Assembly (NCBI RefSeq): GCF_023585785.1
Contig: NZ_CP097765.1
Coordinates: forward strand, 600,001 to 632,000
DNA from: Blochmannia endosymbiont of Camponotus modoc
GTDB lineage: Bacteria > Pseudomonadota > Gammaproteobacteria > Enterobacterales > Enterobacteriaceae
Direction: 5' to 3'
Length of the DNA: 32,000 nucleotides
The notes below the pieces were generated by a model, which did no database searches, was not told the DNA's origin, and saw nothing but the letters and a program-made list of their open reading frames with translations. Shown here one piece after another: positions 8,531-20,619 of this stretch. A program made the translations under genes and the position numbers. The stretch's first letter is position 1. Each line of letters begins with the position of its first letter.

Positions 8531-9277
8531 ATTTATACTCTCAGCTATTATATATCATATGATGATAATATTACTAAATAATGCGCTACAAAATACCATC
8601 TACTAAGGCTCTTGTGATTAACATTTTTCAAAACTTTATTTAATCAACATATTTGCATTGACATAATTACCAATGTTACATATGCATGTAATGCATTGAA
8701 TCAGATCTATTGATCTTTTATTAAAATTTAATTTTTAAAAATAACACTCATATCTTATATTACTATTATTTTAATAAATAATCTAATGTAATAAAAATAA
8801 AAAATACTTGTATGTATAACTATTATTAATCATTTTTTAATTATTTTTAATTCAACATAGAAAAAATGTCAGAAATTTAATTGTGCTAATATTTTTGTAT
8901 TATATACATCATGAATACCATGAGGTGTAATCGCACATACACATTTTTGTATAAATTTAAAAAATTAATAATCTTATACGAGTTATTATTTTGTTGATGT
9001 ATATCATGCAAAATGAACTTACATTACAAGTATCATTAGCCACATTAAAAATAGTTTGAGGACTTATACAATACATTATTTGTGGTAGGCTGTTACTTCT
9101 ATAAACAAGAAATTATACACATTATATCAATACTACAGATTTACATCAAAAGATGCAACAATCTTCAATTTTAATAAATTTTTTAATTTTTATTATTTTA
9201 AAGAGACTGTTGCTCCTGAATATCAATTTCATGGATCAAGCAATACTAATTTTTTTGATTGCATATGTAGTTGGTAT

Positions 9278-9469
9278 TTATTTTTTAGTAATTAAGTCTT
9301 CTTCTATTTCTCTGAGAGCAAGTACGGTATATTTATCATTATTATTTTTTGTAATCAACGTTTCTTTTCCACCAATTTGCATTTGCCGTGCACGTCGCGC
9401 GGCAACTAATATTAAATCAAATATATTACCAACTTTTTCTACAGCATCCTGTACAGTTATACGTGCCAT
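9278..9469 (-). CDS. rpoZ: RNA polymerase omega subunit (short form, 63 aa)
   Basis: [36 protein letters not shown] is near-identical to the E. coli RpoZ N-terminus. It lies directly downstream of gmk, as in the E. coli gmk-rpoZ operon. It lacks the roughly 28-aa acidic C-terminal tail of the 91-aa E. coli protein. Confidence 0.9.
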
Positions 9470-9570
9470 TTTTATTTACCGTGTATGTAGACTGTATTTA
9501 TTAGTTTAATTAAATTTATATTGATCGCAAACACACATACATATTTATGTATTTATATTTAATTTATTAT

Positions 9571-10481: not shown

Positions 10482-10922
10482 TTATCTTGCCATATTATTT
10501 TTTTGTTGTATTTCAAGTAAATTGCATACTTCTCTAAAGCTTTTAAGTTGTACATCAGACAAAAGGGAAAATATGCGATCTAAAATGATGTTATGTGTAT
10601 CTTCAGCAATACGTAATTTATCACGTCCTTTTTCTGTAATATAAACGTATTTTACTCTACGATCTGTCAGACTTTGTTGTCGACGTAACATTTCATCTTT
10701 TTCTAATGCATCAAGAACTGTTACAACGGTTCTTGATGAAAACCCCATGTAATTTTTAATGTCTGTTGCGCTGGTTTTTCCGGTAGTAATAAGATGCAAG
10801 ATTTTCATTTTAGACATTGAAAGACCTTCATTAATTAATTGGCCATTTATTTCCTTGCGTAAACGATGATAAATACGAGATAAGGATTCTACCATGTTTG
10901 AAATATCTGTTAATCTATTCAT
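10482..10922 (-). CDS. MarR/SlyA-family winged-helix transcriptional regulator
   Basis: 146 aa. The central segment ...MSKMKILHLITTGKTSATDIKNYMGFSSRTVVTVLDALEKDEMLRRQQSLTDRRVKYVYITEKGRDKL has the MarR layout: an HTH, then a wing carrying the DRR motif, then a helix. I do not recognise a specific ortholog. It occupies the interval where E. coli K-12 has dinD-yicG-ligB. Confidence 0.75.
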   Translation of the reverse strand: MNRLTDISNMVESLSRIYHRLRKEINGQLINEGLSMSKMKILHLITTGKTSATDIKNYMGFSSRTVVTVLDALEKDEMLRRQQSLTDRRVKYVYITEKGRDKLRIAEDTHNIILDRIFSLLSDVQLKSFREVCNLLEIQQKNNMAR

Positions 10923-16082: not shown

Positions 16083-16109
16083 ATAAAGAAAAGATGCAAA
16101 TTCAACGGC

Positions 16110-16165
16110 ATACTACATAAGCCCCACAGCTCAATATGCATTGAGCTGTGGGGCTTATGTAGTAT
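16110..16165. terminator. Long perfect hairpin between convergent rpmG and coaD (candidate bidirectional terminator / RNA 3'-end stabiliser)
   Basis: Positions 16110-16135 pair perfectly with 16140-16165: 26 bp, 11 of them G:C, with loop ATGC. The hairpin starts 28 nt after the rpmG stop and ends 137 nt from the coaD stop. No canonical U-tract follows on either strand. Confidence 0.55.
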
Positions 16166-16301
16166 AAATATCTAAAATACTATGCTACTAAGTCTACATT
16201 TAGCAGTTTATGTTCATATGTTTTTATATAGTGTCAACATAAAAAAATTAAGTCTACACGTATAATATAACTCTTCAAATTTTCGAGTTTTGATTTTTTA
16301 G

Positions 16302-16817
16302 TTAGAGAAACGAAATGTTTTTGCTTTTTTTCTCAGTATTGCGCAGTTTTTCAATAACCTTCTCAGCGATAAAATTAGGTATAAAACGATCTATTCTCCC
16401 CCCATATTGAGCAATTTCTTTCACTAATTTAGAAGAAAGGCATGCCCATATATCTGTAGATATCATAAATATAGTCTCTACTTCATTAGAGAAGTAATTA
16501 TTAATTTTTGCAAGTTGTATTTCATATTCAAAGTCTGATCTAGTTCTGAGGCCACGAATTAAAATATTCACTTGTTTTTTTTTCATCACGTTTATAGTGA
16601 GGTCATTAAACCCAAACACTGTTACATGATCTAACGTTGCAGTTGCTTGCTTTGCAAATATTACGCGTTCTTCAAGACTAAACAAAGGATGTTTTTGCGA
16701 ATTTTCAGCTACCGCTAAAAATATTTTATCAAAAATTTTATGTGCTCTAATAATTATATCCAAATGCCCATAAGTTAATGGATCAAAAGTCCCTGGATAC
16801 ATAGCCTGAATTGTCAT
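16302..16817 (-). CDS. coaD: Phosphopantetheine adenylyltransferase
   Basis: 171 aa. YPGTFDPLTYGHLDII carries the nucleotidyltransferase HxGH motif, and RGLRTRSDFEYEIQLA and SSKLVKEIA are collinear with E. coli CoaD (159 aa). There is a roughly 12-aa lysine-rich C-terminal extension. Confidence 0.95.
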   Translation of the reverse strand: MTIQAMYPGTFDPLTYGHLDIIIRAHKIFDKIFLAVAENSQKHPLFSLEERVIFAKQATATLDHVTVFGFNDLTINVMKKKQVNILIRGLRTRSDFEYEIQLAKINNYFSNEVETIFMISTDIWACLSSKLVKEIAQYGGRIDRFIPNFIAEKVIEKLRNTEKKSKNISFL

Positions 16818-17521
16818 GATATTTTTATAAATTTATGTTTTTGTGAAAATAAAAAGACTATAAAATATGTATATATATTTCAAATATGCTAAACTACATT
16901 TTGTTTATATGAAGATATAATTTTCAGTGAAAATATAGAATGCCAACTTATTAAATAAATCGTATTAGAAAGATTGACGCGAACATAAATAAACTATCAA
17001 AACGTTTTATAAATTAAATTATTTCATACTTATATTTCCATACATAAAAATATTTTTCGTTAACATTTAATACAATATTTATATTAATAATAAAAATACG
17101 ACGATTAGTTGCTACAATGCTACTTAAGTAAGCTAAATAACCATTTCCAGTAATACCTATATCTGCAGCATCATAATAAAAATTTTAAGCATTTCGACTA
17201 TCTTCTACATTAATTCAACATTTTTGTAATTATACATCTCTCCCAAAAAATATAAATAACCTTAATGTTAAATATTTGTTTATATATACATTTACAAGAA
17301 TCACGATAAACATTGTTTTGATTATATGAAAAAATTATATTTTCATTAAAATCATTCTGGGATAACAGCCATGTCTCATTCAACATGTTATAATATATTG
17401 TAGTTTTTAGTCTAATTTTAGGTTATAGTTAATTTAATAAAAAGTTATTTATAAATATTTTAATATTTAATAACAACTGTTATATTAATTTCATAACCAT
17501 TATAAAACATCGTATGACAAG

Positions 17522-18805
17522 TTATTTTTGAACTAATAAATAATTATCTAACAAACCCAATAATTGCTTTAGTGCTCCTTGATTATGCTGCAGCACTTTG
17601 ATGGCTCTATGACCATAGTTTATACGACACTGTTGATTTAGCAGCAACATAGCAACAGCCTTGACTAAGGATTCCGTATCAGTTACTGTAATTAATCCAT
17701 TTGAATTACATAATTTAACACAAATATCATTAAAATTAAAAGTATACGGCCCCATAATCAATGGAATAGAATGCGCAGCTGGCTCCAACGGATTATGTCC
17801 TCCATGTTTTACTAAACTACCCCCAACAAATGCTATATCTGAAACACCATACAGTAACATTAATTCTCCTATAGTATCATTAATGATTACTTGCGTTTCT
17901 TTAGATGGAGCAACCCCGTTACTTTTCATGATATAAGAAAATCCAGCTTGTTCGGTAATTTTTTTTACATTAATAAAACGTTCTGGGTGACGTGGAGCCA
18001 GAATCATCAGTAAATTAGGAAACCTTTTCAAGAGACGTTTATGTGCTTGTAGTAATAATATCTCTTCTCCTGCATGAGTACTGCTAGCTATCCATACCTG
18101 TCGTTTTTTAATCCAAGTTTTTTTTAAAAATGAAATTTTATTTAATAAATCCTGGTTCATTTCAATATCACATTTTAAATTACCTGTAATAAATAATTGA
18201 TTTTTTTTTAATCCTAACTTAATAAATCGAGAAGCGTCTTCTTTATTTTGAGCAGCAATTAAAGTAATACGTTTCATAATTAACGAAATAAAATAACTAA
18301 ATCTCTTATATCCAGTAAAAGAATGACATGACAACCGAGCGTTAGCAATAATGAAAGGAATCTCGCGTTGATATAATATATTTATGAGATTTGGCCATAC
18401 TTCAGTTTCCATAACAATAACTAATCGTGGCTTAAATTGATTAATAAATCGTTTCATAGCACCAGGTAAATCGTAAGGTAAATAATTGCAGTGCGTACTA
18501 TGACTAAATTTAGATCGCGCCAACTCTATGCCTGTGGGAGTCATCGCAGTTAATGTGATTGTTATTTTTGGATAACGCTTCTGTAAAGCACGTATCAGGG
18601 GGATAGCTGCTAATGTTTCTCCTAAGGAAACAGCATGTAAAATGATCCCATCAGATTGGATAGATTTTCTATAAAATCCGTAGCGTTCCAACCAACATTT
18701 ACGATATGATGGCGATTGTCTGCTGCGCCATAATAATCGTATCCATATTATAGGTTGAGCAATATACATTATAATATTATATATTGTAATATATAGTATA
18801 AACAT
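17522..18805 (-). CDS. waaA: 3-deoxy-D-manno-octulosonic acid (Kdo) transferase
   Basis: From ATG 18805 the product starts MFILYITIYNIIMYIAQPIIWIRLLWRSR (E. coli MLELLYTALLYLIQPLIWIRLWVRGR). HAVSLGET, METEVWPNLI, ANARLS, GGSLVKHGGHNPLEPAA and GPYTFNFNDIC are conserved. The tracked start at 18817 is a TTG 4 codons upstream. Confidence 0.93.
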   Translation of the reverse strand: MFILYITIYNIIMYIAQPIIWIRLLWRSRQSPSYRKCWLERYGFYRKSIQSDGIILHAVSLGETLAAIPLIRALQKRYPKITITLTAMTPTGIELARSKFSHSTHCNYLPYDLPGAMKRFINQFKPRLVIVMETEVWPNLINILYQREIPFIIANARLSCHSFTGYKRFSYFISLIMKRITLIAAQNKEDASRFIKLGLKKNQLFITGNLKCDIEMNQDLLNKISFLKKTWIKKRQVWIASSTHAGEEILLLQAHKRLLKRFPNLLMILAPRHPERFINVKKITEQAGFSYIMKSNGVAPSKETQVIINDTIGELMLLYGVSDIAFVGGSLVKHGGHNPLEPAAHSIPLIMGPYTFNFNDICVKLCNSNGLITVTDTESLVKAVAMLLLNQQCRINYGHRAIKVLQHNQGALKQLLGLLDNYLLVQK

Positions 18806-19988
18806 ATAATATCCCAAAATAATCAGTTATTACATTCATAATGATTAATTTAATCATTTTACATGCATTTAACTATATATCAATATCGCTATGTTTTATA
18901 TAATATATTTTAATAGTCGATATTTATATAAATTTTAAAAAATAATTTATCTGAAAAATTATCTATGTTTCTGCTATTTTTAACAATTATGCTTATAGAG
19001 TATTTTTTTATTTTAAATTAAAAAATAATGAATTCTCATAAATATCCTTTAAAAATTAAACATTGTATTGTATACGATAAAACCATTAATTACTGATTTA
19101 ACATTTTTTGAATAATTTAAATAAATTGTTAATTATGACAATAATTAATGATTAGACAATACTTATAAAAACGATATTTATAACAAATAAATTATAAAAA
19201 CTATAAAATCTGATTAATTTTTATATAACTAAAAACTTAAATTAATCATCCAAACAAACACACATAATATAAGCATATTATTTTTTACATTAATAATTTA
19301 TATTAAAATTAATTATATTACAATATTCACAAATGTGAAAATCTTATAATTTTGTTGGTATAAATAAAATTTATTTATTCAAACTTATAAAAATATATAA
19401 AAATTTATTTTACAAATATATACATGCATCATGTATATAATTATTTTTAATATTAAATAATAATTTAGATGCACAACATAAATAATATTTTTAAAAATCA
19501 AATAATAAGATTAAATTGGAGTATGTACTGTATTCTTTTAGTTTTATCATAATTTATCTATTTCCACCGTAACGTAATGATAGACAACCGGACTACTCAT
19601 TCAGAATTAAATTATGTTAAAAACGATTTTTATTTCTGTAGCTTTAAATATTTTGAAGAATTTATTTTTTCTATGTTAAATATATTTACATTTCGATTTT
19701 AAATTATAAGAAATAATCTATATTAATATCATATAACTATGTATAATGAAATACATATTTCCAATATTGTTTACTGCATTATATTATACATAGATCTTTT
19801 CTGATGCAGTATAAAAGTATGATTACTACGTGTATAATATTTTTTAGTATTGCTGCATAATTACCAGTTACTATATTAATTTTTTTAGATATTATATATA
19901 AATTACGTGTAAAATAAATGTTAATTACTTTATCGGATTTGATTGCAAATTCATGTTATTATATTTCTAATTATATCTTATTATTTTG

Positions 19989-20016
19989 TTTATGCTGATA
20001 AAATTTTATCAGCATA
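19989..20016. repeat. 28-bp perfect palindrome (14-bp arms, no spacer)
   Basis: TTATGCTGATAAAA / TTTTATCAGCATAA; every position 19989-20002 pairs with 20016-20003. It sits in the 1.8-kb gene-free waaA / waaC spacer. Confidence 0.9.
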
Positions 20017-20619
20017 ATAAAACAGTCAATTTATTCGTAAAAAATGAATTTTTAGTAAAATTTCAACAATAAAATTAACAGTATCATGTATTTTAATTGT
20101 AATTTTTTCAAAAAAATAATAAAAATATATTTTTATTTAATCGAAAAATTAATATTTATTATTATTTGAAAGTTTTAATTTTCCTTAAATAATATTAAAT
20201 AGTTAAAATAACAAATACGCACAATGAAAATGTTCAAAAATTTAATATTTGAGAATTATATTCAAGTTTTATACCGATATAATTGTAAGAATATGCTAAT
20301 ACTAACATGATGAAGAAATTTTGGTGTTGTTTGTAAAACAAGCATTCATTCATTAATTAGATCTAATAATTTGAAGTAGTTTATAATTGAATGTTAAATG
20401 ATATTAATTTAAAAATATTGATATTCATCAATAAACAATATAATTTTTTTAGATATTATTCCTTTTATAAGAATACAATTATTTACTTTTAAACCATATA
20501 AACACTATCGTTCCTAACGGGTAGATATCTTTTTATTTATCAAAAAAAAATATCAATTTATAATTAAAGAATTAAAATTAATATAAGGTTTATATGAACA
20601 AGTTTAAGAAAAATGTTTT

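Follow-up and report, generated by a model that had tools for sequence, protein, structure and literature searches.

In E. coli, waaA adjoins coaD directly. In the Blochmannia endosymbiont of Camponotus modoc, the same two genes are separated by 704 nt of noncoding DNA, and the locus raises the question of what this interval is and how it came to be there. We studied it in the context of a stretch of 32,000 nt (contig NZ_CP097765.1, positions 600,001 to 632,000), referred to as the window throughout; all coordinates count from its first nucleotide. An earlier note on this DNA, made from the letters of the sequence, had suggested that the gap splits a gene pair that is normally contiguous and may hold a decayed glycosyltransferase gene. 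We read the interval as a nonfunctional intergenic scar of a gene that disappeared in the common ancestor of Blochmannia, most likely waaE (kdtX), and assign to this reading a probability of roughly 65%.

The interval and its counterparts in Enterobacterales

The window shows a GC content of 16–38% and carries ubiD, dsbA, polA, engB, glnA, gmk, yicC, dut, coaBC, rpmB, rpmG, coaD, waaA, waaC, waaF, hldD, secB, gpsA and cysE. This is the gene order of the 81–82 min region of E. coli, with many genes absent. Both neighbors of the interval are encoded on the minus strand and intact. The Kdo transferase gene waaA occupies positions 17522–18817 (NCBIfam NF004385, E = 1.6e-193, 643 bits at a cutoff of 590); in the record CP097758.1, waaA is annotated with 427 aa and a start 12 nt inside this open reading frame. 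The phosphopantetheine adenylyltransferase gene coaD, with a product of 171 aa, maps to 16302–16817 (TIGR01510, E = 5.9e-54), and an identical CoaD protein is encoded in GCA_023586245.1 (CP097758.1). The coaBC gene of the window is intact as well. With both flanking reading frames identified by protein profiles, the 704-nt gap (16818–17521, GC 0.199) is real and does split waaA from coaD, as the earlier note had it. Elsewhere in the window, a 118-aa ORF at 9153–9509 (plus strand) falls into none of the NCBIfam families at E ≤ 1e-10, and a 146-aa ORF at 10482–10922 (minus strand) resembles MarR/SlyA-like regulators by weak matches, every one of them under its cutoff. A transcription factor kept in a genome this reduced would be unusual.

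The proteins nearest to the WaaA of the window all derive from bacteria named "Blochmannia endosymbiont of Camponotus..." (83–94% identity), while the nearest WaaA proteins outside Blochmannia belong to Sodalis and Biostraticola (61–62% identity). A WaaA scan of one genome per species yielded outgroups exclusively, at no more than 61% identity; the Blochmannia relatives were reached by a protein search and by exact-protein matches. Six of the ten outgroup loci (L001, L003, L004, L007, L008 and L009) contain an intact waaE of 258–260 aa that separates waaA from coaD, lies on their strand and usually overlaps the coaD start. Its hosts are Yersinia massiliensis, Pantoea, Budvicia, two metagenome-assembled genomes and the symbiont Erwinia haradaeae, whose GC content is 28%. 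The intervening ORF of Yersinia belongs to glycosyltransferase family 2 (PF00535, E = 4e-22). In line with the earlier note, a gene of this family occupies this position in many Enterobacterales. Overall, the arrangement waaA-waaE-coaD is found in Yersinia, Serratia, Pantoea/Erwinia, Budvicia and Sodalis-type bacteria. For Y. pestis, a waaAE-coaD operon has been published, and WaaE places a substituent on an inner-core heptose (PMC4782182).

Two further outgroup loci show waaE in decay. In Sodalis sp. MAG C21_1 (L002) and Serratia symbiotica SCifornacula (L006), waaA and coaD are separated by 801 nt and 774 nt, respectively, without an ORF. Both gaps are frameshifted waaE pseudogenes, in which a nearly full-length WaaE match is spread over two or three frames (WaaE profile: E = 3.4e-27, 81.5 bits for L002; E = 7.3e-17, 47.6 bits for L006), and both served as positive controls in our WaaE searches. 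In Symbiopectobacterium (L005) and in L021, on the other hand, coaD begins 7 nt after waaA with no waaE in between. As these two loci and E. coli share direct adjacency of waaA and coaD, the ancestral arrangement in Blochmannia is uncertain. L021 is peculiar in its own right: the WaaA called at L021:2404-4164 (GCA_026008635.1) has 586 aa, about 160 residues over the usual length, and mutM, rpmG, rpmB and radC are all present there.

Compared with the operon known from Yersinia pestis, Serratia and Klebsiella, which encodes the GT2 inner-core glucosyltransferase WaaE/KdtX, the Blochmannia spacer shares flanks, strand and position, and its 704 nt come near the length of waaE (777–783 nt). It differs in that it lacks both an ORF and any detectable similarity to WaaE or PF00535 and has a GC content of 20%; any capacity to encode the enzyme is gone. 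With the pseudogenes of L002 and L006 it has in common a host-restricted member of the Enterobacterales, a waaA-coaD gap of about 0.8 kb and the absence of an intact gene. Those gaps are still WaaE-like nearly throughout, whereas the Blochmannia spacer, in which no match is left, would represent a far later stage of decay.

Similarity searches and the MRHGCYP segment

All direct searches for WaaE in the spacer were negative. A WaaE profile built from six sequences was run with hmmsearch on all six frames; its best score in the spacer was −1.8 bits, and the sense strand scored no better than the antisense strand. The same profile found no match in the six-frame translations of some ten to eleven Blochmannia sequences downstream of waaA (one of them, L022, reaching 127 nt to the contig end). 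When the six WaaE proteins were compared with the whole window by tblastn (word size 2, composition correction off, E ≤ 100), the spacer stayed empty and noise appeared elsewhere. A DNA-level nhmmer profile, which took in the low-GC waaE of Erwinia haradaeae and both symbiont pseudogenes, had no match in ten Blochmannia spacers. Finally, Pfam and NCBIfam searches at E ≤ 10 with the six spacer frames and a frameshift-corrected peptide returned no family except the irrelevant ANAPC8 (E = 0.027). Measured by the refuting outcome named in the earlier note, the absence of a significant blastx hit to a glycosyltransferase, the claim from sequence fails: profile HMM, tblastn, nhmmer, Pfam and NCBIfam yielded no significant glycosyltransferase match. 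Since ten Blochmannia spacers are devoid of statistically sound WaaE similarity, it is synteny that names the lost gene. Of the suggested decayed glycosyltransferase gene, the part drawn from synteny stands and gains from the symbiont pseudogenes, while the part drawn from sequence similarity does not.

The coding appearance of the spacer is that of random sequence. Its six frames contain 16–27 stops each, compared with 22.6 ± 4.5 in shuffled sequences, where the frame with the fewest stops has 16.9 on average; stop density is hence at chance level. The longest open run (70 codons) stays under the 95th percentile of the shuffles (74 codons). The minus-strand translation from position 17379, which had been described as a protein-like stretch, was reproduced without a single difference and contains 4 stops within 94 codons. 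Its protein-like character does not exceed chance, as stop counts and open-run length lie within the range of the shuffles and no family matches.

Within this translation, the motif MRHGCYP had been likened to a motif of GT2 core glycosyltransferases. The likeness can be extended to a colinear match of 28 codons (17297–17379, minus strand) to residues 123–150 of WaaE, interrupted by one −1 frameshift: MRH-GCYP-RMILM, the frameshift, and then ENIIFSYNQNNVY. Residues 123–150 cover the most conserved motif of WaaE (MRHSGWYPD...YNDNLVHES). We scored the match by a custom frameshift-tolerant local alignment (BLOSUM62, gap penalty 7 per residue, frameshift 9, stop −6). Under this scheme the control pseudogenes reached 375 (L002) and 212 (L006) and their shuffles about 38; the spacer reached 49 on the sense and 36 on the antisense strand, with shuffles at 36.4 ± 4.7. 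A score of 49 was attained by 5 of 250 mononucleotide shuffles and equally by 5 of 250 Markov-2 simulations (p ~0.02, uncorrected), while none of 22 tiles taken from other spacers of the window scored above 46. Given about 10 spacers with two strands each, i.e., about 20 tests, the match is not significant after correction.

Two further observations bear on this segment. It is misplaced: 142 nt separate it from waaA, compared with the 366 nt expected, and on the coaD side 479 nt remain instead of about 327 nt, which disfavors its interpretation as a relic. Moreover, the same spacer DNA read in another frame aligns to WaaE 198–247 (score 40). The corresponding stretch of L013, the sister genome, aligns to WaaE 175–224 with an even higher score of 51. 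AT-rich translations typically yield such alignments by chance. No part of the alignment with L013 is less conserved than this segment (58–60% identity, indels of 1 nt and 7 nt), and the motif is only partly kept in L013. The likeness noted earlier extends further than described, to 28 residues of WaaE, and at the same time proves borderline, misplaced and partly lost in the sister genome. The resemblance to WaaE is probably a coincidence.

Age, divergence and further contents of the spacer

A spacer between waaA and coaD was found in every Blochmannia locus that we retrieved, and the gap thus dates back as far as the genus itself. It measures 704 nt in the window, 719 nt in L013, 446 nt in L014, 697 nt in B. 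vicinus (L015), 640 nt in L016, 555 nt in B. ocreatus (L017), 407 nt in L018, 381 nt in L020 and 438 nt in L023. In L019 coaD is absent, and 1032 nt separate waaA from rpmG; apart from this coaD-less locus, all Blochmannia spacers are shorter than a waaE gene. Reduced endosymbiont genomes are subject to a deletion bias. In L023:4423-4860, located on a Blochmannia-like Logan contig (SRR32934263), the GC content of the spacer falls to 8.4%, an extreme end-point of AT-biased decay.

The spacer of the window and that of L013, whose WaaA is 94% identical, agree at 82.4% of 695 aligned nt. At four-fold degenerate sites, identity is 81.7% for waaA and 78.8% for coaD; the spacer of 1.8 kb between waaC and waaA likewise shows 82.4%. 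As the divergence from L013 equals both the four-fold-site rate and the rate of the waaC-waaA spacer, the interval evolves neutrally. Among the five closest genomes, the spacers can be aligned only in patches, and across nine genomes they can hardly be aligned at all. Since the spacers of distant Blochmannia members are unalignable, neutral sites are saturated within the genus, and a readable relic that predates the genus is therefore not expected.

The state of coaD itself varies among these genomes. In L014:4722-5254 and L020:4669-5162 it is broken into two short ORFs (82 + 95 aa and 82 + 47 aa, respectively), and in L019:4282-5313, where coaD is missing, coaBC is apparently gone too. This is in keeping with the finding that Blochmannia lineages lost the CoA pathway (coaADE, dfp) in parallel (PMC4389277).

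The spacer was also inspected for contents other than waaE. Its sole ORF of at least 30 aa, encoding 58 aa (17210–17386, minus strand), is not a gene; as a small-protein candidate it was rejected, being broken by indels in L013 without a counterpart there. A nested ORF of 27 aa (17230–17313) is open in L013 as well. It differs at 13 nt, 10 of them nonsynonymous and 3 synonymous by hand reading, which indicates no purifying selection, and it was dismissed likewise. An Rfam scan of the spacer at E ≤ 1 gave no match, no terminator-like site was found in it, and a search for repeats or traces of mobile elements produced nothing notable. Sigma-70-like sites are fewer than expected by chance (4 compared with 9.9 ± 2.9 in shuffles). 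Among them, the consensus scan points to a candidate promoter for coaD, TTGGCA-18 nt-AATTAT (16917–16946, minus strand; 9 of 12 positions), about 100 nt upstream of the coaD ATG. Its TATAT-like −10 box recurs in loose form among the five closest Blochmannia genomes, though not across all nine. The suggestion of the earlier note that coaD may now depend on a promoter of its own is reasonable, and this site is the one weak candidate.

The block of about 100 nt directly after the waaA stop (17422–17521, minus strand) is 92–94% identical to L013, compared with 82% for the spacer as a whole, and can form a hairpin of A and U only (−16.4 kcal/mol, z = −1.8; 9 of 200 shuffles fold equally well). It is deleted in L014 and unalignable in L015 and L016. 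The block may be a weak terminator, an element of the 3' UTR or sampling noise, and its significance is doubtful. A small RNA or a terminator in the spacer was rejected as a candidate in view of the empty Rfam scan, the lack of a terminator and the weak fold z-score. As the first 100 nt are conserved somewhat above the neutral level, a small functional element may still lie here.

The interval is part of a pattern that extends over the window. Short spacers lie between hldD and waaF (18 nt), waaF and waaC (22 nt) and rpmB and rpmG (20 nt), and coaBC and dut overlap; these pairs are adjacent in relatives, too. Long spacers (219–1802 nt) fall only where relatives hold additional genes. The largest, between waaC and waaA (18818–20619, 1802 nt, ~16–20% GC), corresponds to the position of the outer-core genes and waaL in E. 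coli and relatives. The spacers coaD-rpmG (219 nt), rpmB-coaBC (462 nt) and dut-yicC (733 nt) correspond to mutM, radC and slmA-pyrE-rph, respectively. This rule was deduced from the coordinates of the window; the order of mutM and radC was observed in relatives, and the remainder follows the textbook order of E. coli, in which the outer-core genes and slmA-pyrE-rph occupy the positions of the respective long spacers. The waaC-waaA spacer is presumably a scar of lost LPS genes as well, much bigger than the one between waaA and coaD.

Two of these neighboring spacers were used as controls for the detection of relics. For RadC, nothing was found in the rpmB-coaBC spacer, the score being attained by 24 of 100 shuffles. 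For MutM, residues 52–106 align to 16083–16260 (plus strand) in the coaD-rpmG spacer on the expected strand with a score of 42 (shuffles 29.6 ± 3.6; 1 of 100 attains 42), which is borderline; this match may represent either a faint relic or a product of chance. As the known ancient losses of mutM and radC leave equally faint traces at most, the failure to detect waaE is no argument against its former presence.

Competing explanations and the proposed loss of waaE

Could the segment at 17379–17297 nevertheless be what is left of a true waaE pseudogene? In that case the stretch from MRHGCYP to YNQNNV would descend from WaaE 123–150, with deletions upstream and an insertion or expansion downstream. 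Strand, syntenic site, the choice of the most conserved WaaE motif, the need for a single frameshift and a score above that of all tiles from other spacers speak in favor, and the similarly faint same-strand signal of mutM next to rpmG suggests that faint relics can last. We nevertheless consider this unlikely. The p-value precedes correction for the number of spacer-strand tests, the profile scores are negative, and the alternative alignments of the same DNA and of L013 look like chance. Saturation of neutral sites within Blochmannia means that a relic older than its divergence should be gone, and the geometry demands a net insertion of about 150 nt on the downstream side. The Blochmannia radiation dates back about 40 My. 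A broader claim, that the WaaE and MutM blocks are both genuine relics of genes lost before that radiation and have survived in the spacers, draws on their each lying on the expected strand with p ~0.01–0.02, and appears quite improbable to us. If it held true, parts of the spacers would change at a slower pace than assumed, or the losses of waaE and mutM would have come later and in parallel in different Blochmannia lineages.

It is similarly improbable that no gene was lost at all, i.e., that waaA and coaD were adjacent in the ancestor and the spacer arose by AT-rich insertion or expansion or from another gene or a mobile element. The 7-nt spacers of L005 and L021 would fit such a history, as would the undetectable homology of the spacer to any family. 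It runs against the deletion bias of reduced endosymbiont genomes (general knowledge; see also the Buchnera spacers, PMC3164680), against the absence of repeats and mobile-element traces, against the match of all other long spacers of the region with known lost genes, and against the presence of waaE or a waaE pseudogene in Sodalis-type relatives. Retention of the spacer for the sake of a functional element, be it a promoter or 5' leader of coaD, a terminator of waaA, a small RNA or a micro-protein, is very unlikely. The promoter-like site upstream of coaD with its loosely conserved TATAT box, the well-conserved block with its A/U hairpin and the 27-codon ORF open in both genomes can be cited for it. 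Against these stand an overall divergence equal to the synonymous rate, the scarcity of promoter-like sites relative to shuffles, the negative terminator and Rfam searches together with the fold z-score, and the excess of nonsynonymous differences in the small ORF. In addition, the spacers differ two-fold in length and cannot be aligned across the genus, and about 50 nt would suffice for a promoter where 704 nt are present.

The loss of waaE is, in our view, the best account of the interval. Synteny and the pseudogene intermediates of other symbionts make waaE the likely victim; its role as the origin of the spacer is plausible but unproven. According to this model, waaE would have been inactivated in the ancestor of Blochmannia, and AT-biased mutation together with small deletions would then have wiped out all reliable similarity to it. 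The residue would be a spacer of 381–719 nt with 8–20% GC that drifts at the neutral rate. Transcription of coaD would proceed by read-through from waaA, which we propose in view of the lack of a detectable terminator, or from a weak promoter newly formed within the AT-rich spacer. How coaD is transcribed is a minor question, given that several Blochmannia lineages lost coaD along with the entire CoA pathway.

This account is in good agreement with what has been described for other symbiont genomes. Degnan, Ochman and Moran (2011) characterized Buchnera spacers as AT-rich, neutral and variable in length, located at the sites of lost genes (PMC3164680), and the waaA-coaD spacer has the same properties. 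It also fits the class treated in the Blochmannia pseudogene surveys of Williams and Wernegreen (2015) and falls below the BLASTX threshold (E < 1e-5) for calling pseudogenes (PMC4389277); the searched parts of that paper make no mention of a loss of waaE. In reduced endosymbiont genomes, dispensable genes ordinarily end in this way (PMC3164680, PMC4389277).

The finding adds one further gene-loss scar to those of reduced endosymbiont genomes and is of little wider importance. For annotation, it implies that such scars can be named by synteny with relatives and not by similarity searches. As regards the biology of the symbiont, it suggests that the lipopolysaccharide of Blochmannia is devoid of the WaaE-dependent glucose branch on the first inner-core heptose, in line with the loss of the entire outer-core region at the adjoining 1.8-kb waaC-waaA spacer.
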